The notes under the pieces: generated by a model | Told to the model about the DNA's origin: nothing | Seen by the model: only the letters and a program-made list of their open reading frames with translations | The model's database searches: none | Part shown: positions 49,253 to 64,000 of the stretch, in pieces | Layout: each line of letters begins with the position of its first letter | How positions within the stretch are numbered: position 1 is the first letter of the stretch | Program-made: the position numbers and the translations under genes | NCBI GenBank assembly: GCA_965213705.1 | Contig: OZ243913.1 | Span: 832,001 to 896,000, forward strand | DNA from: Trueperaceae bacterium | GTDB lineage: Bacteria > Deinococcota > Deinococci > Deinococcales > Trueperaceae | DNA length: 64,000 nucleotides | Direction of reading: 5' to 3'

Positions 49253-51076
49253 ATGGGCTTCATCATGGACGGCGTCGCCACCGAGGCGTACGACCGCAGC
49301 TACAGCGACCGCCAACTCTTGCGCCGCATCTTCGCCTATTTCCGGCCGCACCTAAAAACGATGGTGTTCGTCGCCCTCATGACCTTTTTGGACGCGCTGA
49401 TGGGCGCGGCGCTGCCGGTCTTAATCTCGCGCGGCATCGACGTGTTGGACGGCTCGAGCGACTTGCAAGCCGGGCTGTGGCAACAAGCGGGCGGTCTGCT
49501 CGTCGCCGTGTTGCTGGCCGGGGCGCTCGCCTGGACGTTCAACTTTTTTCGCCAGACCTATACCGCTCGCGCAGTGGGCGACGTGGTGCTCGAGCTGCGC
49601 AAGGACGCCTTCGACGCGGTGCTGGCGCGCGACATGTCGTTTTACGACGAGTTCTCGACCGGCAAAATCGTCAGCCGCGTCACCTCGGACACGCAAGACT
49701 TCGCGACCGTCGTCACCCTGACGCTCAACCTCATGAGCCAGGTGTTGCAAATCCTCATCATCGTCGGCGTGCTGTTTTACCTGAACGTGCGCCTCACGCT
49801 CATCGCGCTTGTTATCGCGCCCTTTATCGTCGCGGCGGCCCTGGCATTTCGCTACGTCGCGCGCTTTACCGCGCAGCAGGCGCGGCGCGTCCTCGCCGAG
49901 GTAAACGCGAACGTGCAGGAGTCTGTCACGGGCATCTCGGTGGCGAAGGCGTTTCGGCAGGAGCGGACCGTGTTCGACACCTTCAGCCGGGTCAACGAGC
50001 AGTCCTACGACCTGAACTTGCGGCAGGGCCTCGTCTTCAGCTCGATTTTCCCCATCCTCGGCACCATTGCGGGAGTCGGCACGGCGCTGGTCGTGTACTT
50101 CGGCGGGCGCAGCGTTTTGGCGGGTACGGTCACGGCGGGCGAGTGGTACTTGTTCGTCCAGAGCGTCGCGCTGTTCTGGTTTCCGCTGACGAGCATCGCC
50201 TCGTTTTGGAGCCAGTTTCAGCAAGGACTGGCGGCGAGCGAGCGCGTTTTCGCCCTCGTCGACGCCGAGCCTCGAGTGGTGCAGATCGGCGCTGAACAGG
50301 TTGGGGATTTGCGGGGGCGGCTCGAGTTCGTGAGGATGGACTTTCGATACACCGAACAGGAGCAGGTGCTCCGCAGTTTCGACCTGACGATTCCGGCCGG
50401 GGAGACCGTCGCCTTTGTCGGCCACACCGGGGCGGGCAAGTCGAGCCTTGGCAAGCTCGTCGCGCGTTTTTACGAGTTTCAGGGCGGTCAGTTGCTCGTC
50501 GACGGGCGCGACATCCGCACGCTCGACTTGCAAAGTTACCGCCGTCACCTAGGCATCGTCCAGCAGACGCCCTTTTTGTTCCGCGGCACGGTGCGCGAAA
50601 ACATCCGCTACGGGGCTCCAAACGCCTCGGACGAAGAGGTGGTTGCGGTGGCGCGGCGGGTCGGCGGCGGCGACTGGCTGGACGTGTTGCCGCAGGGTTT
50701 GGACACCGACGTGGGCGAGTCCGGCAAGGGCATTTCGGGCGGGCAGCGGCAGCTCGTGGCCTTGGCTCGAGTGCTGCTGCAAAACCCGCGTATTTTAATC
50801 CTGGACGAGGCGACGGCGAGCGTCGACCCATTGACCGAGGCGCAGATTCAAGAGGGGCTCGAGCTTGTCCTGCGTGACCGCACCGCCATCGTCATCGCCC
50901 ACCGGCTCTCGACCATTCGCAGCGCCGACCGAATTATCGTGTTGAGCAAGGGCGAAATTGTCGAGGAGGGTACGCACGAGGGCTTGCTCGAGCAAGGTGG
51001 TCACTACGCCGAACTCTACAACACCTACTTCCGGCACCAGTCGCCGGACTACGACCCGGTAGGGGCGGGGTCTTAG
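49253..51076 (+). CDS. ABC exporter half-transporter, consensus Walker B
   Basis: GHTGAGKS, ISGGQ, ILDEATAS, AHRLST. Confidence 0.93.
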   Translation: MGFIMDGVATEAYDRSYSDRQLLRRIFAYFRPHLKTMVFVALMTFLDALMGAALPVLISRGIDVLDGSSDLQAGLWQQAGGLLVAVLLAGALAWTFNFFRQTYTARAVGDVVLELRKDAFDAVLARDMSFYDEFSTGKIVSRVTSDTQDFATVVTLTLNLMSQVLQILIIVGVLFYLNVRLTLIALVIAPFIVAAALAFRYVARFTAQQARRVLAEVNANVQESVTGISVAKAFRQERTVFDTFSRVNEQSYDLNLRQGLVFSSIFPILGTIAGVGTALVVYFGGRSVLAGTVTAGEWYLFVQSVALFWFPLTSIASFWSQFQQGLAASERVFALVDAEPRVVQIGAEQVGDLRGRLEFVRMDFRYTEQEQVLRSFDLTIPAGETVAFVGHTGAGKSSLGKLVARFYEFQGGQLLVDGRDIRTLDLQSYRRHLGIVQQTPFLFRGTVRENIRYGAPNASDEEVVAVARRVGGGDWLDVLPQGLDTDVGESGKGISGGQRQLVALARVLLQNPRILILDEATASVDPLTEAQIQEGLELVLRDRTAIVIAHRLSTIRSADRIIVLSKGEIVEEGTHEGLLEQGGHYAELYNTYFRHQSPDYDPVGAGS

Positions 51077-51114
51077 AAAACTCGAGAAACCTCAGCCACG
51101 TGCTCGAGCAAAAA

Positions 51115-51141
51115 CGAGGTGTGGGAAAATCCCACACCTCG
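51115..51141. terminator. Bidirectional terminator-like hairpin
   Basis: CGAGGTGTGGGA-AAA-TCCCACACCTCG between convergent genes. Confidence 0.75.
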
Positions 51142-51170
51142 ACTTTCGTCAAGCTGTTTTTACCGGAACC

Positions 51171-52013
51171 TCACGCCATCTGCCGCTGCGACACCACGCT
51201 TTCTTCCGGCACCATGCGCTCGCCGATTTTGGCGGCGGCGATGTAGAGCACGACCGCTGCGCCGATTTTGTTGACCATGTCGGCCACCGTAAAGGCGATG
51301 TGTACCCAGTTGAGCGACAAACCCGGCGCGAGCGCGGGCAGCATGTAGCCGATGGGGTAAACGCCCCACGTGGTCACGGTCGCAAAGGCCAACCACTTGT
51401 AGGCGGTGCGTTCCTCGGGTTTGGCGTCCGCGCCGTGGCGGCGGTAAAGGCTGAACAGGATGATGGGGATGAAGACGTAACCTATCGTCGAGACAAAGCC
51501 CCAAAAGTAAAGCCTGCCGTTTAAGTAGTTGCCCGTCGCGGTGAACTGCTGCTCGCCGATGTACCCCGTGACAATCATAAACAGGTCGGCCAACAAGAGC
51601 AGCGCGAGCGCGCCCTTGATGTTTTTGGGTTTGATGCGCAGGGTCATGACGGTTTTTAAGAGCAGTAGCGGCGTCGTGATAAACCAGTCGATGTAGCGGT
51701 ACTGGCCGATTGCCAAAAATGAGTCGCGCACGAGCGTTTGCCGCGCGGCCGCGTCGGGGGTGTTGGCGAGTTCCACCAACATCGAGTGGTAATACTGGTG
51801 AATGAAAAAGTAAGACACCCCGGCCACGCCCACGATGACCGCCGAGAGCACAATCGAGTCGCGGTGCTCGGGCGCAATTCGGTCACGGTTCGAAAGTGCC
51901 CACACGAATGTACCTGCAAAACCGAATACGGAGACGAAAAGAGCGTAGTTGGTGATGGCGGCGAGTAGCCCCACCGACGCCGCCGTCGGAATAAACTGGT
52001 CTGCAAAACGCAT
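51171..52013 (-). CDS. Microbial (type 1) rhodopsin, DTK motif
   Basis: Seven TM segments; RYIDWFITTPLLLLK, WGVYPIGY, ADMVNKIG retinal Lys. Confidence 0.92.
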   Translation of the reverse strand: MRFADQFIPTAASVGLLAAITNYALFVSVFGFAGTFVWALSNRDRIAPEHRDSIVLSAVIVGVAGVSYFFIHQYYHSMLVELANTPDAAARQTLVRDSFLAIGQYRYIDWFITTPLLLLKTVMTLRIKPKNIKGALALLLLADLFMIVTGYIGEQQFTATGNYLNGRLYFWGFVSTIGYVFIPIILFSLYRRHGADAKPEERTAYKWLAFATVTTWGVYPIGYMLPALAPGLSLNWVHIAFTVADMVNKIGAAVVLYIAAAKIGERMVPEESVVSQRQMA

Positions 52014-52390
52014 GTTTCCCCCCGGCCGTTTAACGGTCTGAACTAAAACGTTTAACCTTTTAGAGTCGTTTGTCGTCTCACCCCCACGCGACCCTTGCGC
52101 CGCTTCTGATGGCTGAGATAGTAGCGCCGCGTGAGAACGCCGACTATTCCTGGAATTACTATTTTCGGGCGGGCTCGAGCTTACAAAAACTTCGTATTCT
52201 TAAACCTCTATTTTGTGGTGACCTCGAACCCTAGCCGGCGTCTGTTGGGTGACCGGACAACCCTTACGGCGGCAGGGTTCAGTTCGAAAACAAAGCTTGG
52301 CTCGAGCGTGTTGAAAGATTCGCTTTTCTCAAAGTCAAGTGTCGAAGCAATCCGCCTTTTGCTACAATCAACTCACCCACGGAGGCGCAC

Positions 52391-52936
52391 ATGAGCCTGA
52401 CCATCAAAAAAGAACCCTTCACCTACCACGACCTGGACAACTTCCCCGACGACGGTAAGCGCCGCGAAATCATTGGAGGCGACCTTTACGTGAGCGCAGC
52501 ACCTAACACACGCCACCAGCGGCTTATCGTCGAATTAGTCTTTCTGATTCGTAGCTTTTTACAAGACAATCCAGTGGGCACTGTGTTTGCAGCACCTACC
52601 CAAGTCGTCTTCGACGAAATGGAGAGCGTCGAGCCGGATATTTTTGTGGTCCTCAAAGAAGGACGTGCCGAAATTACCGAACGAAGAATCTTGGGCGCAC
52701 CCGCCTGGGTCGTCGAGGTGTTGTCGCCCTCGAACCGAGACTACGACCTGGAAACGAAGCGCAAACTTTACGCTCGCTACGGCGTGGTCTACTGGGTCGT
52801 CGACCCTGAAGCTGAGGAGATTTTGAGCTGGGATACAGAGGGAAAAGTAGTCTACCAGAGAGGTGACGAGGCGAAAGTTTCTGTGTTGCCGGGGTTTGGG
52901 CTCGAGCCCACCCTGCTGTTCGACGCTGTTAGTTAA
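52391..52936 (+). CDS. Uma2 family endonuclease
   Basis: PDDGKRREIIGG, APNTRHQ, VEPD, VVEVLSPS, YWVVDP. Confidence 0.92.
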   Translation: MSLTIKKEPFTYHDLDNFPDDGKRREIIGGDLYVSAAPNTRHQRLIVELVFLIRSFLQDNPVGTVFAAPTQVVFDEMESVEPDIFVVLKEGRAEITERRILGAPAWVVEVLSPSNRDYDLETKRKLYARYGVVYWVVDPEAEEILSWDTEGKVVYQRGDEAKVSVLPGFGLEPTLLFDAVS

Positions 52937-52949
52937 GCTGGCGTTTTCT

Positions 52950-53294
52950 ATGAAGCAGGTTGCACTCCTCCTGTTTATAACTTTCACGATAGGTTTTCTC
53001 ACCAGTTGTGGTGGCGTCAAAGTTACCGTCCAAAACGTGAGTGATAAACTGTTGCAGGATGTTGAATTACGTACAACGTCGGACGTGTACGAACTCGGTA
53101 GTATCCCGCCCGGAAGCAGCGTCAGCGAGCGGATTAGGCCTACAGAGGATACAGATTTAGCCTTGTCTCACCGGGACCATCCCGAACGGCTGATGGTAGG
53201 CACTTACCTGACGGGTGGGCTCACCGGACAAATCACGATAGACCTTAACGACGACGCTATTACGAAAGTTTCCGACGACATAAAAGTCCGGTAA
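52950..53294 (+). CDS. Hypothetical lipoprotein
   Basis: MKQVALLLFITFTIGFLTSC lipobox; lower GC. Confidence 0.7.
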   Translation: MKQVALLLFITFTIGFLTSCGGVKVTVQNVSDKLLQDVELRTTSDVYELGSIPPGSSVSERIRPTEDTDLALSHRDHPERLMVGTYLTGGLTGQITIDLNDDAITKVSDDIKVR

Positions 53295-53422
53295 GAGGCG
53301 GTGGACGATGCGGGTTTCAAAAGCTTTATGCTCAACTCGTCGTCAGCTCTACGCCTAGCTTCGTGAGTTACGTCAGCAGTTCAAATGTTTTTCCCCCTTC
53401 TCTTTAATTTTCGTTCTTCGCA

Positions 53423-55372
53423 CTACCGAACTTCACTCCCACTCGCAATATCTCTGTCTAGCGCAGACACGCTCAGGTTTCCTTCATCGTCCTCGGCGGC
53501 CAGAATCATCCCCTGCGACTCGACGCCGCGCAGTTTCACGGGTTTGAGGTTGGCGACGATGATGACTTTTTTGCCGGTCAACTCTTCGGGCTTGTACCAC
53601 TGCCGGATGCCCGAAACAATCGTGCGCTCTTCCGAACCGAGCTTCACGCTCAAAACGAGGAGTTTGTCGGCCTTCGGGTGCGGCTCGCACTTGACGACCT
53701 CGGCGACGCGGAACTCGAGCCTCGCAAAGTCCTCAATCGTCACCTCGTCCTTGTGCTCGAGGGGCGTTTCCTCGCGCAACACGTCTTTCATAAGCGCCTC
53801 CAAGTCGATGCGCGGGAAAAGCGGGTCGCCGGGTTGGGTCTTCGTGTCGGCGGGCGTGTCGCCCCACACGGCGGCTTTGTTCAGGTCGTAGTAGAGGGTC
53901 TCGAGCCCGAGCTGCTTACGCAACTCCTGCGCCTTGGTCGGAATCACCGGGTCGAGGAGGATGGACGCGACGCGCAAGCCCTCGACGCAGTTGTACAGCA
54001 CCGTGTTCAAGCGCTCGGCGTCGGCCTCGTCTCGAGCCAGCACCCAGGGCTGCGTCTCGGCGATGTACTTGTTCGCCTTGCGCACAGCTTCCAACACGCT
54101 CTCGATGGCGCGGTCGAACTGGAGGTCGTCGAACTGCTGCGTGACGGTTGCGGGGAGGGCAACAAAGGCGTCGCGTAGCGCCTCGTCGGTGGGCTCGAGC
54201 GCGCCCGGCCCCTTCACCACGCCGCCCCGGTACTTGCCGAGCATCCCGAGCGTGCGGTTGAGCAAGTTGCCTAAGTCGTTCGCCAGGTCCGAGTTGATGC
54301 GCTCGGCCAGCCCCACCTCGCTGAACGAAGCGTCCAGCCCGAAGGTCATGTCGCGCAACAGGTAGTAGCGAAAGGCGTCGTTGCCGTACTTGTCTTTCAA
54401 GTCCAGGGGCCGCACCACGTTCCCTTTAGACTTGCTCATCTTGCCGCCGTCCACCAACCAGTAACCGTGGACGTTGAGGTGCTGGTAAATCGGCAAGCCC
54501 GCCGCTTTCAGCATCGTCGGCCAAAAGACGCCGTGGGGTTTCAAGATGTCCTTGGCGATAAAGTGCTCGACGTGGGGCCAGTAGCGCTCGGTCAAACTTT
54601 GGCTCTCGAGGGCCGAGAAATAGTTGATGAGCGCGTCGAACCACACGTAAGTCACGTGGTTTTCGTCCCACGGGAGCGGGATGCCCCAGGGCACGCGGCT
54701 TCGGGGGCGGCTTATCGAGAGGTCGCCGATGGGCTCGCGCAGGATGCCTAAAACCTCGTTTTTGTAGCGCTCGGGCCGGATGAAGTCCGGGTTTTGCTCG
54801 ATGTAGTCTTTCAGCCAGGGGCGGTACTTTTCCATGCGGAAAAAGTAGTTTTCTTCCGACCGGTACTCGAGCCTTATGTCGTGCTGCGGACACTTGCCGT
54901 CGACGAGTTCTTTCTCGGTGTAGTAGCGCTCGCAGCCGACGCAGTACAAGCCGCCGTACTCGCCGAAGATGATGTCGCCGGAGTCGTAAACGCGCTGGAG
55001 GATTTCACTGACGACTTTTTTGTGCCGCGCCTCGGTCGTGCGGATGAACTCGTCGTAGTGGATGCCCAGGTCGTCCCAAACCGCGCGGAACTGCCCTGAA
55101 ATCCGGTCGGTGTAGGCCTGCGGACTCAAGCCGGCGGCCTCGGCGGCTTTTTGTACCTTTTCGCCGTGCTCGTCGGTGCCGGTCAGGAAATAGGTGTCGT
55201 CGCCCTTGAGCCGGTGAAGCCTCGTCACCACGTCAACGAGCGTCGTCGTGTAGGCGTGGCCGATGTGCGGCTCGGCGTTGACGTAAAAGATGGGCGTGGT
55301 GGCGTAGTAGATGGTTTGGTTTGGGTCGGCGGGACTCGCGTCTTCCGGTTTGGGCTGTGTCTCCGTGGTCAT
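53423..55372 (-). CDS. metG: Methionyl-tRNA synthetase with C-terminal tRNA-binding domain
   Basis: PHIGHAY, TGTDEHG, CVGC, KMSKS, SQGMILAA; RBS AGGAG. Confidence 0.97.
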   Translation of the reverse strand: MTTETQPKPEDASPADPNQTIYYATTPIFYVNAEPHIGHAYTTTLVDVVTRLHRLKGDDTYFLTGTDEHGEKVQKAAEAAGLSPQAYTDRISGQFRAVWDDLGIHYDEFIRTTEARHKKVVSEILQRVYDSGDIIFGEYGGLYCVGCERYYTEKELVDGKCPQHDIRLEYRSEENYFFRMEKYRPWLKDYIEQNPDFIRPERYKNEVLGILREPIGDLSISRPRSRVPWGIPLPWDENHVTYVWFDALINYFSALESQSLTERYWPHVEHFIAKDILKPHGVFWPTMLKAAGLPIYQHLNVHGYWLVDGGKMSKSKGNVVRPLDLKDKYGNDAFRYYLLRDMTFGLDASFSEVGLAERINSDLANDLGNLLNRTLGMLGKYRGGVVKGPGALEPTDEALRDAFVALPATVTQQFDDLQFDRAIESVLEAVRKANKYIAETQPWVLARDEADAERLNTVLYNCVEGLRVASILLDPVIPTKAQELRKQLGLETLYYDLNKAAVWGDTPADTKTQPGDPLFPRIDLEALMKDVLREETPLEHKDEVTIEDFARLEFRVAEVVKCEPHPKADKLLVLSVKLGSEERTIVSGIRQWYKPEELTGKKVIIVANLKPVKLRGVESQGMILAAEDDEGNLSVSALDRDIASGSEVR

Positions 55373-55390
55373 CTTCGTTCTCCTAACGGC

Positions 55391-55423
55391 AAAAAAAGAA
55401 GGGCGCTTTCGCAAAAGCGCCCC
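55391..55423 (-). terminator. Intrinsic terminator in the metG leader (attenuator)
   Basis: GGGCGCTTT-TGCG-AAAGCGCCC-TTCTTTTTTT, ending about 18 nt before the metG ATG. Confidence 0.85.
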
Positions 55424-55443
55424 GTAACGACTAGGTTGAAAAC

Positions 55444-55482
55444 CTATCCGACTCCAGGGCAAAGTTGCATCAGTCGCTTCAT
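55444..55482 (-). CDS. Putative metG leader peptide MKRLMQLCPGVG
   Basis: TATACT 6 nt before ATG (leaderless), internal Met codon, followed by a hairpin and the terminator. Confidence 0.6.
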   Translation of the reverse strand: MKRLMQLCPGVG

Positions 55483-55634
55483 AGGGCAAGTATAGCAGAC
55501 CTTTGGAACGCGCGTGCTGTAGGCGTTTGCCGACTCGAGATACTGGGTGGCGGCGTAGCAAGCGGTGGCGGTTACTCCGGCTCGTCCCTTACAAAGCTAC
55601 AATCGGACTATGTTTTTCAGAAGAGGTGACCCCC

Positions 55635-56240
55635 ATGACAAACGTTGAAATTCCCGATATTTCCCGAACCGAACGCCTCGAGCTGCCCGCCCCCCGCACC
55701 GCCTTAATCGTCGTGGACATGCAAAACGACTTCGCCCACCCCGACGGAACGCTTTACGGCGAGGACGCGACGCGCGTCATCCCAACCATTCAAGGACTGC
55801 TCGAAAAGGCTCGAGCCGCGGGCATGCGCGTCATCTTTACCCAGGACTGGCACGGTGACGCCGACCCCGAGTTCGAGATTTGGGGCGAGCACGCTCTAGC
55901 CGATACCTGGGGCGCGGAGATTGTGGAGGGCTTGGAGCCGCGCGACGATGAAACCCGCATCCGTAAACTTCGCTACGACGCGTTTTACGGCACGTCTTTG
56001 GAGCACCTGCTAAACCTCTGGGGCATCACCCACACCGTCATCGTCGGCACCGTCGCCAACATCTGCGTGCTCCACACGGCGGGCTCGGCGGCGCTGCGCT
56101 ATCTGGACGTGGTCGTCCCCGAAGACGCGGTCGCCGCACTCACAGATTTCGACAAGGAAAGCGCGCTGCGGCAGGTGACTTTCCTCTACCGCGGTGAGGT
56201 CACGAAAGCCGACGGCATCACTTTCGTCCAATCAGCGTGA
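55635..56240 (+). CDS. Cysteine hydrolase, nicotinamidase (PncA)-like
   Basis: VVDMQNDF, QDWH, WGEH, K.RYDAF, VANICV. Confidence 0.85.
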   Translation: MTNVEIPDISRTERLELPAPRTALIVVDMQNDFAHPDGTLYGEDATRVIPTIQGLLEKARAAGMRVIFTQDWHGDADPEFEIWGEHALADTWGAEIVEGLEPRDDETRIRKLRYDAFYGTSLEHLLNLWGITHTVIVGTVANICVLHTAGSAALRYLDVVVPEDAVAALTDFDKESALRQVTFLYRGEVTKADGITFVQSA

Positions 56241-56923
56241 GGGAGGTTCAAGGCGTCCTGTTCGATATGGACGGCCTGCTCCTCGATAGCGAGCGATTGT
56301 ATTTAGAGGCGACTCGGCAGGCATTCGAGGAGCACTCGTTCGATTTTCAAACAGATGCGTACTTAGAGTGCATCTGTACACCTGACGTGGAAGCGGTGAA
56401 GATTATGCGCACGGCTTACGATGACACTTTGCCCGTTGAGAAAGTGATGGCTCGAGCTGCGGAACTCTACAGGAAGCGCGTACATTCGGAACCCGTGCCG
56501 CTCAAAGAAGGTTGTTTGGAGTTGTTGGGCTTTTTGGAAGAGAACGACATCAAGTGCGCGGTCGTCACTTCGACGCGCACCGAACTGGCTGAGCACAAGC
56601 TGCGGCTTGCCGGAATTCACGACGCGTTTTCTTTTGTTATAGGTGGCGACCAGGTGACGCGCAGCAAACCCGCGCCGGACATCTACCTCCGCGGCGTCGA
56701 AAAAATGGGTGTTCCGGTTGAAGCCTGCCTCGCTCTGGAAGATTCGGAAAACGGCGTGCGGGCGGCGGTGGTGGCGGGTCTGCAGGTCGTTCAGGTGCCG
56801 GATTTGAAAGCGCCGTCGGACGAATTCTTGACGTTGGGCCATGAGGTTCTACCTTCGCTCAGGGCAGTTAAGGATTATTTGGCGGGGTTGGGAAGCGTTT
56901 CGGTTGATACATACAGCGTTTGA
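56237..56923 (+). CDS. HAD family phosphatase
   Basis: FDMDGLLLDSE, VTS, KPAPD, LEDSENG. Confidence 0.92.
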   Translation: MREVQGVLFDMDGLLLDSERLYLEATRQAFEEHSFDFQTDAYLECICTPDVEAVKIMRTAYDDTLPVEKVMARAAELYRKRVHSEPVPLKEGCLELLGFLEENDIKCAVVTSTRTELAEHKLRLAGIHDAFSFVIGGDQVTRSKPAPDIYLRGVEKMGVPVEACLALEDSENGVRAAVVAGLQVVQVPDLKAPSDEFLTLGHEVLPSLRAVKDYLAGLGSVSVDTYSV

Positions 56924-56991
56924 CTCACCCCTGCCTCCCCTTTGAGGGTAGGTGCCGAAGGGTGGAGGGCTCGAGGGTCGGATTGAAACCT

Positions 56992-57591
56992 TCAAGCCTC
57001 CACCAACGCCCCGAAGTCGATTTCAGCCGCGGGCCGCACGTCGGCCTTCAGCACGCGCTCCATAATCCGCAGCGCCTCGTCGCCATAGTCGTCACGCTCC
57101 GCCGCCACGCAGTCGGGCGGGACGACGAGCTTGAAGTCCTGCATGTAGGCGTCGTTGGCGGTGAACAGCACGCAGATGTCGGTGGCGACGCCGCAGAGGA
57201 TAAGCGTTTCGACGCCCAAGTCGCGCAGCAGCGTGTAGAGCGAGGTGAGAAAGAAGCCCGAGTGTTTCGGTTTGAGGACGAAGTAGTCGTCCTCTTCGGG
57301 CCGCAAAAGCTCGACCATTCGTTTGCCGGGCGTGTCGCCCAAGCAGTACTCGACGACGCGGGTAAAGTCGCTCTGCCAGCGCCCGAAGTTGTCGTTGACG
57401 TAGACCACCGGTACCCCGGCGATTTTGGCGCGGCATTTCAGGTCGGCAATCGTCTCAGCTACCGGCAGGGCGCGTTCCAGCAAGTTTTCAGCGCCTTCAA
57501 ACTCGAGCGGGTTGATAACGTCGATAAGCAAAAGTGCGACGACGGACTCGTCGGCTTTGTCGTGGTGCAAGGCTTTCGGGTCTCTCGGCAT
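56992..57591 (-). CDS. Isochorismatase family cysteine hydrolase
   Basis: LIDVIN, YVNDNFG, KPKHSGF, ATDICV. Confidence 0.88.
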   Translation of the reverse strand: MPRDPKALHHDKADESVVALLLIDVINPLEFEGAENLLERALPVAETIADLKCRAKIAGVPVVYVNDNFGRWQSDFTRVVEYCLGDTPGKRMVELLRPEEDDYFVLKPKHSGFFLTSLYTLLRDLGVETLILCGVATDICVLFTANDAYMQDFKLVVPPDCVAAERDDYGDEALRIMERVLKADVRPAAEIDFGALVEA

Positions 57592-57751
57592 GGTTGCCCC
57601 CTGGGCTTTATCAAAAAACCGCCCGGCGAAAAGAACCGTATCCCGACGCACCTTCTACCGTAGGACGACGCTGGAAACGCGTGCGGACAAGCTGATATTC
57701 TCGGCTTATGCACCTTCCCTGAGCAGGGGAGCGGAGGAGAACAGGCTTTTG

Positions 57752-57792
<41 letters not shown>

Positions 57793-57810
57793 GGTACTCG
57801 GTACTTTCCC

Positions 57811-59946
57811 ATGAACCTCGTCACCCTCGCCACCTGCAACTTAAACCAGTGGGCGCTCGACTTCGGCGGCAACTTGGAGCGCATCGCCGCGTCCATCCGC
57901 GTCGCTAAAGAGCGCGGCGCGCGCTACCGGCTCGGGCCGGAGTTGGAGATTCCGGGTTACGGCTGCCAGGACGCTTTTTTAGAGGGCGACACGATTCGCC
58001 ACTCGTGGGAGTGCTTGGCGGAAATCTTGGACAGCGACCTCACCGACGACCTCCTCTGCGATGTCGGGATGCCCGTGCTGCACCGCGACGTGCGCTACAA
58101 CTGCCGGGTGTTTTTGCTGAACCGGAAAATCCTCCTCATCCGTCCGAAGATGGCGCTGGCCCAGGACGGCAACTACCGCGAGGCGCGCTACTTCGCCGCC
58201 TGGGCACATACACGCCACACCGAGGAGCACGTGCTGCCGCGCATGATTCGTGAGATTACGGGACAGGCTACTGTGCCGCTAGGCGACGCGGCCGTCGCCA
58301 CGCTCGACACGGTCGTCGCTGCCGAGACCTGTGAAGAACTGTTCACGCCGGACAGTCCGCACATCCATCTCGGACTCGACGGGGTCGAGATTATCAGCAA
58401 CGGCTCGGGCTCGCACCACGAACTGCGCAAGCTGCAAAAACGGGTCGACCTCATCCTGAGTGCGTCGGCGAAGGGGGGCGGCGTGTACCTTTACGCCAAC
58501 CAGCAAGGCTGCGACGGCGGGCGGCTGTACTTCGACGGCTGCGCCCTCATCGCGGTGAACGGGCGGGTGGTGGCACAGGGCTCACAGTTCTCGCCTCGAG
58601 ACGTCGAGGTCGTCACCGCGACCGTCGATTTGGAAGAGGTGCGTTCGTTCCGCGCGGGCTTTATCAGCCGCATGGTGCAGGGCAGCGAAGCGCCGCCGGT
58701 GCCGCGGGTCTACACGGACTTCGAACTGACCGAACGGGGTTTCTCGCGCGGCCCGAGCCCGGTAGTCGCGCTGAAGTTCCACACGCCGGAAGAAGAAATC
58801 GCCCTCGGCCCGGCCTGCTGGCTGTGGGACTACCTGCGGCGTTCTAGCCTGGGCGGTTTTTTCCTACCGCTTTCGGGCGGCTCGGACTCGGCGGCGGTGG
58901 CGGCGCTGGTGGGTTCGATGTGCCAGCTCGTGGTGCGTGAGGCGCGGGCGGGCAACGAAACCGTCAGCGCGGACGCGCGCCGCATTACCGGGCAGGGCGA
59001 CGACTGGACGCCGGACGACCCCCAGGCCCTCGCTCACGCCCTGCTCCACACCTGTTACATGGGGACGGAAAACTCGTCTAAAGCTACGCGCGCTCGAGCC
59101 AAGCGCCTCGCCGCAGAAATAGGTGCTTACCACCTCGATGTGGACATCGACCAGATTATCTCAGCCTGGCGCACTACCTTCGAAACTCTAACCGATAAGC
59201 GCCCGCGCTTCAAAACGGCGGGCGGCACGAACGCCGAAAACCTCGCACTGCAAAACATTCAGGCGCGCAGCCGCATGGTGCTGGCCTATTTTCTGGCGCA
59301 ACTGTTGCCCTGGGTGCGCGGCCGAGAGGGTGGCCTGCTCGTCCTCGGCACCTCGAACGTGGACGAGGCGTTGCGCGGCTACATGACGAAGTACGACGCG
59401 AGTTCGGCCGACATCAACCCCATCGGCTCGGTGTCAAAAACGGACTTGCGGAGGTTTTTGCGCTGGGGCGTTGAAAACCTCGGCTATGAAAGTTTGTTGG
59501 AAATCGTTGAAGCCGTCCCGACCGCGGAACTCGAGCCCACCACCGAAACCTATACTCAGTCCGACGAGGCCGATATGGGCATGACTTATGAAGAGTTGTC
59601 CGTCTTCGGGCGGTTGCGCAAAGTGGACAAGTGCGGCCCGGTGGCGATGTTCGAACACCTGGTGTTCGCCTGGGACTACTTGAGCCCGGCGGAGGTGGCC
59701 GAAAAGGTGAAGCGGTTTTTCTTCTACTACGCCATCAACCGCCACAAGGCGACCGTCTTGACGCCCGCCTACCACGCCGAAAGCTACTCGCCCGACGACC
59801 ACCGTTACGACCTCCGGCAGTTTCTCTACAACGCCCGCTGGACCTGGCAGTTTCGGAAAATCGACCGATTGGTGGAGGAGATTGAAGGCTCGAGGCCGAA
59901 CGACAAAGCGTCCTCGGCTCCGGGTTTGCAAAGGGAAGACGAGTGA
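57811..59946 (+). CDS. nadE: Glutamine-dependent NAD+ synthetase, eukaryote-like type
   Basis: Nitrilase domain (GPELE, RPK, ETCEE) plus synthetase domain ([33 protein letters not shown]). Confidence 0.95.
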
Positions 59947-60046
59947 GTCCAGCTCTTTTTTACCAAGCCCTCGAGCACGACCTTTTTCTCTTCTTTTCCC
60001 CTTCCCAAAGGAGTGCGCTCGAGCGCAGCGCCGAGCGAGGGGTTTC

Positions 60047-60619
60047 ATGAGGCTCGGCCTTTACGGCGGCCGCTTCGACCCGCCGCACTTAGGTCACCTC
60101 CTCGTCGCGGAAGGGGCGCGGGCGACCCTCGAGTTAGACCGCGTCTTCTTCATCCCCAGCAAAACCCCGCCGCACAAAGGAACCGAGGCGAGTGCGCAAG
60201 CGCGTTATGAGATGACCCTGCTCGCCACCGCCGAGAACCCCCACTTTTTTGTACTGGACTTGGAACTGAAACGCGAAGGCACCTCTTACAGCGTCGACAC
60301 CGTCGAAACGCTGCTCGAAGCGTACCCGGACGCCGAAATTTTCTACCTGACCGGCGTCGACGCTTACCAGGACATCGCTACCTGGCAGCGCGCTCGAGAC
60401 CTCGTTACAAAAGTGCAGATGGTCGCCTACCCGCGGCCCGGTTACAGCCTGGACGGGCTCGAGCCCCACTTTTCAGACCGCGTTAAGCTTTTGGAGTTGC
60501 CGCTGTTCGAGGTCTCGAGCACAGCCATAAGACAGCGTTTGCGAACGGGGGAGAGCGTGCGCTACTTGCTGCCGGACGCCGTCATGGCTTATGTTGAAAA
60601 ACATACCCTTTACCGCTGA
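60047..60619 (+). CDS. nadD: Nicotinate-nucleotide adenylyltransferase
   Basis: YGGRFDPPHLGH, PPHK, SYSVDT, VSSTAIR, YVEKHTLY. Confidence 0.95.
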   Translation: MRLGLYGGRFDPPHLGHLLVAEGARATLELDRVFFIPSKTPPHKGTEASAQARYEMTLLATAENPHFFVLDLELKREGTSYSVDTVETLLEAYPDAEIFYLTGVDAYQDIATWQRARDLVTKVQMVAYPRPGYSLDGLEPHFSDRVKLLELPLFEVSSTAIRQRLRTGESVRYLLPDAVMAYVEKHTLYR

Positions 60620-60730
60620 TGTCGCAAGGTCAGCGGTCGCACAGTAGGCAGCCTCACAGTTGGCGGTTTTACAGCCGGTACCCTTTCCGGACAGCCGACA
60701 AGGTCGGGGGACCGAGTTCAACCTGCCCGT

Positions 60731-61969
60731 TCACCGTACCCCCGCGGTCGTACAAACTTGTCGAGTCTCAGACAGCGCGGTGAGTGGTAACCGCATAGAC
60801 ATCCGCTGCCCACCGCGCAGCACGACCACGTCGCACAGGCGACCGGCGGCACCGACCACGGCGTCGGTCTTTTTCGCTTGGTCGACACCTGTCGGCGTGT
60901 CCACGGCCGCGTCTCGGACCGCCACGATAACGTCGCCTCCCAACAGCCAGCGCGCGCCGCCGTAGTCCACGGGGCGCGACCCCCCCAAAAGGCCGGCCTG
61001 AGCGGCCGCACCGCCCGGCACGACGTTGAGCACCAGCCAGCCCTCGTCGGGCATACCGTACAGAACCTGCACACTTCTGGGTAAGTCGCGCACGTCGACC
61101 CCCGTCATGGCGGTGCTCATGGTGGCGCTCGGACGCTGCAGGGGCTCGGGCGACGACCCGGGTACCGGAGTTGGTACCAGGGCCAACCCCGCCAAACGCT
61201 CGAGCAGCGGCTGAATCGGCACAGCCAAGCTGACCCCGGCAAAGCTGTCGCCGCTGGGATTGTAAATCGCTGTGGCGACGCCCACAACCTCCCCCTGAGC
61301 CGTGAGCAGCGGCCCGCCCGAGCTGCCCTGGTTGAGGGCGGCGTCGGTCTGAATCATGGGCGGAAACTCACCCGGGAACTGTCGGTTCAACGCCGAAACG
61401 GTCCCGGTGGTTACCGAACCGCTCAGGCCGAAAGGGTGGCCGATAAGGATGACCTTCTGGCCGAGTTGCAAACCGTCTGTTTTGGTCAAGGGGATAGGCG
61501 GAACGTCGGGTACCGCGTCGGGCTCTACGGGTTCCAACAGCGCCATGTCCCACTCGGGCAGCGCGTACCTTTCCCGCACGCTCAAGGTGGTGCGGGGCTG
61601 CGACCCTGCAAAAGTGACCTTGAGTTCGACAGCCTCCTCCAAACCGGGTTGGGCCGCGTTTTTGGAATGCACGACGTGGTAGCTCGTCACGATGTAAGGC
61701 CGACCGGACAGGTGCACCAGAAAGCCGCTTCCGCCGCGCACGGCGGCAGGTCCGGGTGTGTTTGCGAGCGACACGTTCGCTGTCACGCGCGCGGCCGGAA
61801 AAACGCTGACGCCGACGACGCTCGCCTGGTAGCGCCCCGCCACCTCGACCGTGTTGGCTTCGTACTCGAGCAGCGCCCGCGTCTCGTCGTAGGGAGCAGA
61901 CGGTTGAGCCGCAGCCCAGCCCAAAAGGCTGAATAGGGTGAGGTTAAGAAAAAGTAGGTGACGTCGCAT
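60731..61969 (-). CDS. HtrA/DegP-like S1C serine protease with PDZ domain
   Basis: Signal peptide; GSGF, SYHVV, DMALL, QTDAALNQGSSGGPL, GGAAAQAGL..GGDVI. Confidence 0.88.
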   Translation of the reverse strand: MRRHLLFLNLTLFSLLGWAAAQPSAPYDETRALLEYEANTVEVAGRYQASVVGVSVFPAARVTANVSLANTPGPAAVRGGSGFLVHLSGRPYIVTSYHVVHSKNAAQPGLEEAVELKVTFAGSQPRTTLSVRERYALPEWDMALLEPVEPDAVPDVPPIPLTKTDGLQLGQKVILIGHPFGLSGSVTTGTVSALNRQFPGEFPPMIQTDAALNQGSSGGPLLTAQGEVVGVATAIYNPSGDSFAGVSLAVPIQPLLERLAGLALVPTPVPGSSPEPLQRPSATMSTAMTGVDVRDLPRSVQVLYGMPDEGWLVLNVVPGGAAAQAGLLGGSRPVDYGGARWLLGGDVIVAVRDAAVDTPTGVDQAKKTDAVVGAAGRLCDVVVLRGGQRMSMRLPLTALSETRQVCTTAGVR

Positions 61970-62173
61970 AAGAGGCAAGTGTGAAGAACTTAACACCCGC
62001 AGTTTAACGCTTCAAGTGGACGAGGTCGGTGACCGTTGCAAGCTGTGTACTACAACCTTGCAGGAAACGAGTACGAACCCCCTTGCCTTGGGAGCGCGCG
62101 GGCAAGAGGTTCGCCTCGACAGACCTCAGGGTTTAATACCCTTTCCGGTTCATGACCTCGGTTAACCCGAGCC

Positions 62174-62253
62174 GACAGTCCTGAACCAGCGGAACTATCG
62201 GTGACGGTTTAACGCTCAGCCGTTAAAATCACAACCTATGGTTCAGGACTGTC
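62174..62253. repeat. 80-bp element with 15-bp perfect terminal inverted repeats
   Basis: GACAGTCCTGAACCA...TGGTTCAGGACTGTC with inner TTTAACG/CGTTAAA stem. Confidence 0.75.
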
Positions 62254-62415
62254 CAGCGAGAAGAAACTGTCGCGGATTCCGGTGAGCCGAAAAACCTCTT
62301 TACGTCTAACAGGTGTACTACCGGAATCCGTATAAACTGCGCACTTCAGGCGCGAGGCGGGGTCTTGGTCTGCGCGAGGTTTTGTGGCTGGGAAGTGCTC
62401 GAAGGCGTTTGCGTT

Positions 62416-62673
62416 TCAGCTGCGAGCGCGGCGCAAGGGCCGGCTTTTTTTCGGCGGTGCCACCGCGATACGCTGCCGCAGTTGGGGTTTGTCGAGGATG
62501 GCCTTGGCTAGCTTTTCGTTACCTTGAGCTTTGGCCTCGGCAATTTGAGACTCGAGCGCGAACAGCTCATAGGCTAACGCCGTTTCCAACCCTTTGCGAC
62601 GGGCACCCGCAGAGACGTCCTCGAGAAATTGGTCCAGTTTCACGCACAGGTAAAAGGGCAACTCGGATGACAT
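62416..62673 (-). CDS. Small hypothetical protein
   Basis: 85-aa helical-looking ORF; no family recognised. Confidence 0.35.
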   Translation of the reverse strand: MSSELPFYLCVKLDQFLEDVSAGARRKGLETALAYELFALESQIAEAKAQGNEKLAKAILDKPQLRQRIAVAPPKKSRPLRRARS

Positions 62674-63194
62674 GCCCCAATGTAGCCCCAGTCCGCTGCC
62701 CGGTTGTCGGCAGTCGTCACAGGCCGGGCAAGCGGTAGGGGCGGCCGGACCACCCTGGCACAGCCGTCATGCACGCCGTCGGAGCGTGTCGCCTTTTTGC
62801 TGGGCAGAGGTACACCCGCCACCGGTTTGGCAGCGCGAGGCCGGAACACGCACACCGTCGAGGTGAAGGTTATGTAGGCACGTGTGGAACGGCTCGCGCT
62901 GGTGGAGACGTGTGACGCTCAGAAAGGTCCTTCGGAGGTAGAACGCTCGGCTCTCAGCTCGAACGGCCGCAGGCTCGAGCCCTGCCTCCAAAGATTTTTG
63001 CCACCTTTTTAGCGCCGCCGTCACCGACTTGCGCTAGTATGCGTTAGGGAGGACCCAGTGCAACAACCGTGTTTTCTCAGTTCTCGCAATCCGACTCTCC
63101 CCGTCGTTTCCTGCGCTTGTATGATGGCGCGCGGTCACGTCAGCCTCCGTTGCGCCGTAGAAGAGGGTGGGTTCGGCCGCGGTCTCGAGCCGGC

Positions 63195-64000
63195 ATGACG
63201 ACAGTCCGCAAAGACACCAAATACGCAACGCGCAAGGACAACCTGGCGCTGTGGGGCGGCGTCCTCTTCAGCTTGCTGTTCACCCTGCTCGTTTGGGGCC
63301 TGGGCGGACGCTTGGAAAGCGTGCGTCTTTTGCCCGACCAGGGGGCGGCTTGGTACTACTGGAAGCTCCCCAACCCCACCTTCTGGAGCCGCGCGAGCGC
63401 CTGGGGCTTGTATCTCGCCCATCAGCTCGCCATTTGGGGCACTATCTTTTACGCGCAGACGCGGGTGCGGCGCTACGCTAAAGGGCTTCACCGCGTCAAC
63501 TTCGTCGCGCTCTCACTCAACGCGCTTTTCGTCGCGTTGCACCTCGTACAGACGCACCTGTGGTACGACGGGCTGGCCCAGGACACCAGCGTTTTTTCGT
63601 CCCAGGGCTCGGTCATCGTGCTCTTGGTCTGGGTCTTGCTGATGGAAAACCGGCGGCGCGGCCTGCTGTTCGGCTGGAAGGCCCCCTTGGGTGCGCAGAT
63701 CATGGACTTCGCGCGGCGGTATCACGGTTACTTTTTCGCCTGGGCAATCATCTACACGTTCTGGTTTCACCCGATGGTGGCGACGAGCGGCCACCTCGTC
63801 GGCTTGTTCTACACGCTGCTGCTCATGCTTCAGGGCAGCCTGATGTTTACGCCCGCGCACACCAACCGCTACTGGACGTTCTTTTTGGAGGTCATCGTCT
63901 TGGTTCACGGCACCCTGGTCGCCGTGATGCAGGCTAACGGCCTCTGGCCGATGTTCTTTTTCGGCTTCGCGGGCATTTTCGTCATCACGCAGATGCACGG
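63195..64000 (+). CDS. Multi-TM membrane protein of unknown function, partial
   Basis: Not in ORF track (runs off window): MTTVRKD...LPDQGAAWYYWKL...HLVQTHLWYDGLAQD...ENRRRGL...YHGY. Confidence 0.8.
   Translation, partial: MTTVRKDTKYATRKDNLALWGGVLFSLLFTLLVWGLGGRLESVRLLPDQGAAWYYWKLPNPTFWSRASAWGLYLAHQLAIWGTIFYAQTRVRRYAKGLHRVNFVALSLNALFVALHLVQTHLWYDGLAQDTSVFSSQGSVIVLLVWVLLMENRRRGLLFGWKAPLGAQIMDFARRYHGYFFAWAIIYTFWFHPMVATSGHLVGLFYTLLLMLQGSLMFTPAHTNRYWTFFLEVIVLVHGTLVAVMQANGLWPMFFFGFAGIFVITQMH

Follow-up and report, generated by a model that had tools for sequence, protein, structure and literature searches.

A eukaryote-type glutamine-dependent NAD synthetase in Trueperaceae, very probably acquired from another bacterium

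Introduction

How did a bacterium of the family Trueperaceae come to carry a NAD synthetase that resembles the enzyme of animals, fungi and plants? The question is raised by a nadE gene on contig OZ243913.1 of GenBank assembly GCA_965213705.1, within a stretch of 64,000 nucleotides (positions 832,001 to 896,000) that we analysed as a whole and call the window. An initial annotation of this sequence proposed either an old eukaryote-to-bacterium transfer or a bacterial sister clade of the eukaryotic enzyme.

As far as the accessible text of De Ingeniis et al. 2012 (PMC3376133) goes, the eukaryotic branch II of NAD synthetases derives from the bacterial branch I; branch II is called eukaryotic there without bacteria being named as members, and only one-domain enzymes are reported for Deinococcus-Thermus. 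Eukaryotic NAD synthases are described as monophyletic except for Aureococcus in the consulted part of PMC4217691. According to the portion of a 2026 preprint available to us (10.64898/2026.05.08.723234), Chloroflexota are a frequent sister of clades of the eukaryotes' last common ancestor (LECA) in cofactor metabolism, nicotinamide included; NAD synthetase is not named in its main text as seen, and its supplements may already hold a tree of the enzyme. K01950 stands in two module rows of PMC13468126, without a per-gene donor in the section consulted. A search of titles and abstract openings, with most subscription journals outside its reach, found no paper describing a bacterial clade of eukaryote-type NAD synthetases.

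Results

An intact two-domain enzyme of the eukaryotic branch

The nadE reading frame (Table 1) runs from ATG to TGA with no internal stop, the gene is intronless, as the initial annotation had it, and all five groups of motifs quoted there are present in the translation. The fusion of glutaminase and synthetase is intact, with an SGGxDS loop at residues 355-360 which we take to bind ATP and pyrophosphate. Compared with solved structures, the protein reaches 929.5 bits (E 1e-278) on human NADSYN1 (PDB 6ofb), aligned over residues 4-697, against 216 bits for the Cytophaga enzyme (3ilv) and 76-80 bits for that of M. tuberculosis. Identity reaches 64% to Mucoromycota fungi, 60-61% to vertebrates, 56% to Chondrus and 53% to Lupinus, as opposed to 29-32% to the copies of Spirosoma, Hymenobacter and Vibrio. 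The proposed likeness to eukaryotic rather than typical bacterial enzymes thus holds for the human and plant proteins; the close resemblance to yeast Qns1 is one that we assume.

Table 1. Features of the window around nadE (positions are those of the window)
Feature	Position	Strand	Basis and remarks
nadE, glutamine-dependent NAD+ synthetase, eukaryotic branch, 711 aa	57811..59946	+	Domains, structure alignment, trees
Nitrilase-type glutaminase domain	57826..58653	+	Residues 6-281, CN_hydrolase PF00795
Synthetase domain	58819..59598	+	Residues 337-596, NAD_synthase PF02540; TIGR00552 over cut-off
nadD, nicotinate-nucleotide adenylyltransferase	60047..60619	+	Over TIGR00482 and NF000840 cut-offs; 100 bp after nadE
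Isochorismatase-family hydrolase, likely nicotinamidase (pncA)	55638..56240	+	PF00857; under NF008623 cut-off; function from context
HAD-family phosphatase	56237..56923	+	Overlaps pncA-like stop; same place in same-genus genome G001
Second isochorismatase-family hydrolase	56992..57591	-	PF00857; divergent from nadE
Pyrimidine-rich 7-base tandem repeat	57755-57810		Directly upstream of nadE start
Microbial rhodopsin	51171-52013	-	PF01036

The protein shares its domain fusion with the M. tuberculosis-type (PRK02628) and short fused (PRK13981) bacterial enzymes, yet scores far below their equivalog cut-offs (132.8 against 473 and 115.8 against 479 bits, respectively). It is also below the cut-off of single-domain NadE (PRK13980; 83.4 against 255 bits, at 711 aa). 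No second strong NAD synthetase was detected in the genome by tblastn and Pfam, the other Pfam match being weak and partial (E 4e-6); the window gene is the sole NAD synthetase of its genome.

Residues were mapped from an alignment of the window protein with human NADSYN1 to the numbering of PMC6946656. The human enzyme (Chuenchor et al. 2020, consulted in part) is matched over its full length with gaps of one residue only. The catalytic triad E44 (57940), K113 (58147) and C174 (58330), together with the second glutamate E124, aligns with human E45, K114, C175 and E125; the human coupling residues Y595 and K609 correspond to Y593 and K607, whereas human E120 is D119 here and W179 is F178. According to the accessible part of the same paper, eukaryotes conserve Y123 and H203 in the tunnel, where prokaryotes have F and P instead. 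The window protein retains this pair as Y122 and H202, unlike the M. tuberculosis-type enzyme with its F130 and P204. Since histidine also occurs in Cytophaga-type sequences, Y122 is the sharper eukaryote marker. The Cytophaga-type fused enzyme, taken here as branch I, has the same domain order and triad and is the nearest other bacterial group found, although it lies about 7 changes per site away. What sets the window gene apart from human NADSYN1 is its place on a bacterial chromosome, without introns and upstream of nadD; its activity, octameric state and channelling are predictions from sequence.

We are all but certain that the gene encodes a functional glutamine-dependent enzyme, predicted to catalyse the final step of NAD salvage. 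By homology to human NADSYN1, the triad would free ammonia from glutamine, the ammonia would pass by a tunnel to the synthetase site, and nicotinate adenine dinucleotide (NaAD) would there be adenylated with ATP and then amidated to NAD+. Salvage of nicotinamide or nicotinate is the likely route because searches of the host genome (98% complete) detected neither nadA nor nadC, pncB is encoded elsewhere in it, and 1.6 kb upstream of nadE stands a pncA-like gene. Nicotinamide would thus be converted to nicotinate by the pncA-like product, to nicotinate mononucleotide (NaMN) by PncB, to NaAD by NadD and finally to NAD+. Orthologues of the pncA-like gene (53-61% identical) start a pncA-nadE-nadD-pncB run in a second Trueperaceae genus (g10) and adjoin nadE and pncB in genome G020. 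The second isochorismatase-family hydrolase is 33% identical to the pncA-like protein and 95% to its own orthologue in G001.

The rhodopsin in the window has an intact retinal lysine region, and its three motif positions read D-T-K, which we take to be the pattern of the Exiguobacterium proton pump.

A rare and shallow bacterial clade

A pattern scan of 185,579 GTDB species genomes gave at least 216 confirmed relatives, a lower bound because divergent copies lack the scan patterns. The best 80 of the 216 comprise 47 Poribacteria, 30 Chloroflexota, one Trueperaceae, one unlabelled and one doubtfully labelled genome, and E44, Y50, K113, Y122, E124, C174 and H202 are kept in all 80 of these loci. 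Whole-genome searches found the eukaryote-type gene in 113 of 121 Poribacteria and in 7 of 128 Trueperaceae, the latter in 2 of 36 genera. Carriers also make up 27 of 131 genomes in the order to which an Ardenticatenaceae-labelled genome belongs and 2 of 135 in that of a Caldilineaceae genome. No copy was seen in 350 evenly drawn Chloroflexota besides the centre of the draw, nor in four other families of the host's order, sampled with 16 genomes. Two genomes in these tallies, G054 and G167, are unpublished, and no conclusion depends on these two by themselves. Across Poribacteria and Chloroflexota, identity is 63-75%. Among ten carriers checked from the Poribacteria and Chloroflexota group, the eukaryote-type copy is the sole strong or clearly the main NAD synthetase match in eight and stands alone in seven; a second match occurs in G802, G803 and G045.

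Plasmids and phages yielded no eukaryote-type copy (best 31%), and no named bacterium of intermediate likeness appeared among the 50%-cluster matches that could be named. One carrier labelled as Pseudomonadota (L078; Cellvibrionaceae) was set aside: it lies on a 4 kb contig, its genome has another NadE, and its phylum label is doubtful, the genomes drawn for its phylum being identical to those drawn for Chloroflexota. Intronless NAD synthetases of the eukaryotic branch are also present on giant-virus contigs from metagenome-assembled genomes (L214:6001-8046; L016/L213, L017 and L215-L218), at several separate tree positions. Contig L214 is gene-dense and carries sugar-metabolism genes. A literature search on giant-virus NAD synthetases found nothing.

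Phylogeny and the deep origin of the clade

The main tree (LG+C20) had 48 rows, including a four-sequence outgroup, after 13 long or redundant rows had been dropped; its bootstrap was not fully settled, and the set held no named sponge, amoebozoan, discoban or metamonad. In this tree the bacterial clade is united with eukaryotes at 100/100, and a FastTree run with M. tuberculosis-type rows gave the same grouping at 100. A grouping of the window protein with ordinary bacterial NadE, the outcome that would have spoken against the initial annotation, was therefore not what the trees returned. Support for the 17 bacterial rows as a group is 97/91; their stem measures 0.055, they lie about 7.3 from the Spirosoma/Vibrio group, and the base of the joint branch is a polytomy. 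With all four long rows of the g10 group added, support for bacterial monophyly falls to 45/15 and the Chloroflexota-rich subclade dissolves. Widening the outgroup brought only Cytophagales among named rows.

An outgroup-free tree was built from 36 rows, with 13 further rows removed (the outgroup, G139, Durotheca and others) and one Pyropia swapped in. Here the split of bacteria from eukaryotes has support of 98/96, and the point of attachment lies between opisthokonts (100/99) and the remaining eukaryotes (83/89). The root of eukaryotes is often placed between these same two groups. Constraining eukaryotes to monophyly (27 rows treated as eukaryotic or viral, 9 of them without a named source) improved on the free tree by 2.8 log units, with p-AU 0.57; in the constrained tree eukaryotes emerge from inside the bacterial clade and divide into opisthokonts, with one unnamed row, and the rest. 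It should be pointed out that long non-opisthokont branches attracting each other may leave bacteria beside opisthokonts by default.

The split between the bacterial clade and the eukaryotic enzyme is old, and two explanations of it survive these tests. We give a slight preference to the clade being the eukaryotic gene's sister lineage or its source; the lean comes from parsimony, one inter-domain transfer being required, and from the outgroup-free tree. The other, which we put somewhat short of even odds, is that an early eukaryote (a stem lineage, the red-algal side, or by way of a giant virus) gave the gene to bacteria, probably to Poribacteria, from which Anaerolineae and Trueperaceae received it; the enzyme and its recent history would be the same. 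Free trees with an outgroup do nest the bacteria among eukaryotes, red algae are their sister in 489 of 1000 bootstrap trees, eukaryotes are monophyletic in only 4 of 1000, and the AU test does not reject a red-algal sister (p-AU 0.41). The rarity and shallowness of the clade, the lack of nameable intermediates and the intronless giant-virus copies point the same way. However, this course needs two inter-domain transfers, the eukaryote-monophyly tree is slightly better, and none of the giant-virus copies groups with the bacterial clade. In addition, the outgroup of the free trees joins beside long eukaryote branches, a pattern open to long-branch attraction; given the length of the stem, outgroup rooting is uninformative. 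Both alternatives offered by the initial annotation thus remain live, except that direct entry from a eukaryote into Trueperaceae is not supported, since the window copy sits within a bacterial clade at 63-75% identity.

Recent source of the window gene

Whatever its deep origin, the window gene very probably arrived from another bacterium. The nearest named proteins are from Anaerolineae (73% identical), and the window protein with three close rows, unnamed or from Trueperaceae, falls inside a Chloroflexota-rich subclade, which includes one Poribacteria row, at 97/92 in the 48-row and 96/90 in the 36-row tree. Within Trueperaceae, genome G004, whose MetG is 87% identical to that of the host, was checked and has a single-domain NadE (258.7 bits on PRK13980). 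These observations, together with the small number of carriers in the family, argue for a recent bacterial source, and the donor was probably a member of Anaerolineae. A recent capture directly from an animal or fungal neighbour, to which the 60-64% identity to animals and fungi might point, is very improbable: bacterial relatives are nearer (63-83%), codon use is fully host-like, opisthokonts hold together, and an animal sister of the bacterial clade is rejected (p-AU 0.0006, no sponge being in the set).

Local history in Trueperaceae

As the initial annotation stated, nadE precedes nadD, and the same order is found in G001. As to the type of NadE beside nadD in relatives, a check proposed by that annotation, the pair is local to two Trueperaceae genera, and other Trueperaceae mostly have ordinary single-domain NadE. 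Where a Trueperaceae genome has a strong Pfam match, the open frames are in most cases short and fit the single-domain enzyme. This PRK13980-type protein (about 290 aa) catalyses the same final NAD step and is often encoded beside pncB, but has no fused glutaminase and is 26% identical to the synthetase domain of the window protein. A strong NAD synthetase match is missing in 52 of 121 Trueperaceae genomes.

The window NadD is 57% identical to that of G004 and 48-50% to those of other families of the order. In G004 and G018 nadD lies directly before yqeK, whereas in the host yqeK comes next after obgE, nadD being absent between them; the gap is short (G000:C1:512440-512630, L228), and no remnant of nadD was detected in it. 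Because relatives keep nadD before yqeK and the host has it behind the new nadE, the pair is best seen as a local rearrangement. By sequence, nadD is thus native, of a Deinococcota-like type in a tree without Chloroflexota nadD, and appears to have been relocated from the obgE-yqeK site. The incoming nadE would have displaced the single-domain NadE of relatives, and the native nadD would then have moved behind it. Transfer of nadE and nadD as a donor unit was rejected, as nadD is nearby in 0 of 79 non-Trueperaceae loci (fetched flanks of up to 4 kb); pncB is near nadE in 2 of the 79. Among 19 Trueperaceae genomes searched, the host included, nadD was over the cut-off in 5.

In genus g10 the complete pncA-nadE-nadD-pncB run occurs in G095, G134 and G139, while G118 and G129 show nadE-nadD-pncB at the ends of contigs. 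The nadE genes of G095 (L156:2241-4382) and G134 (L155:664-2832) have lost the catalytic lysine and cysteine of the glutaminase but retain the synthetase half, and are therefore predicted to encode ammonia-only enzymes. Both sit in the complete run, and a 13-member metagenome cluster (P0154) shares the decay. In the assembly of G139 the operon appears twice, about 20 kb apart (L203 and L204; G139:C1:276000-310000), 99.4% identical over 13.7 kb, and both nadE copies show a frame change near residue 460. G139 joins the g1 group at 94/91 in the 48-row tree but not when more g10 rows are included; the pncB and nadD trees do not resolve one entry into g1 and g10 from two.

The gene belongs to its host genome

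The host genome is a single contig of 4.25 Mb. The nadE gene matches it in GC content (63% against 61%) and in CTCGAG sites (four, or 1.9 per kb, against 2.1 per kb), as the initial annotation had claimed, and ranks at the 66th percentile for codon score and the 70th for GC3 among 1903 long ORFs. In G001, from the same genus, nadE is 93% identical and the gene order is the same. The dN/dS between the two is 0.10, as for metG, and the gene is under purifying selection. Contigs of run X1, possibly the source sample, cover 55716-59813 and 59784-60237 with no differences and at even depth. The earlier judgement that contamination is unlikely is borne out, and eukaryotic DNA joined into a bacterial contig by assembly or binning, for which nothing speaks beyond the likeness itself, is hardly conceivable given the single contig, the bridged flanks, the second species with the same order, the near-universal presence in Poribacteria and the lack of another NAD synthetase in the genome.

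A 9-base core of the repeat upstream of nadE occurs 34 times in the genome; read depth over the repeat is about fourfold higher, so related repeats exist elsewhere. A promoter scan gave no sites, terminators were at chance level, and Rfam had no matches over 50000-64000 of the window.

Discussion

Taken together, our best reading, with a probability of about 0.5 as a whole, is that the window encodes an intact enzyme of the eukaryotic branch, obtained from a bacterial donor and belonging to a clade that separated from the eukaryotic enzyme around the time of LECA. The chemistry of the enzyme is ordinary; its evolutionary placement is unusual. More tentatively, one may speculate that Poribacteria, Anaerolineae and Trueperaceae preserve the bacterial source of eukaryotic NAD synthetase, acquired shortly before LECA. 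The gene would then still be crossing phyla and displacing the resident NadE; it would be drawing nadD into an operon for salvage and, within a single genus of Trueperaceae, decaying to an ammonia-only enzyme with a fused shell.

The published bacterial source branch is only about 30% identical, whereas the clade described here is at 60-64%. If the bacterial source is true, a much closer origin would be named for a core eukaryotic metabolic gene. If instead a eukaryote was the donor, an essential eukaryotic enzyme would have become fixed in almost all of one bacterial phylum and been handed on to two more, a rare occurrence. For Trueperaceae themselves, the intact and decayed copies form a natural pair for studying the loss of glutamine use.
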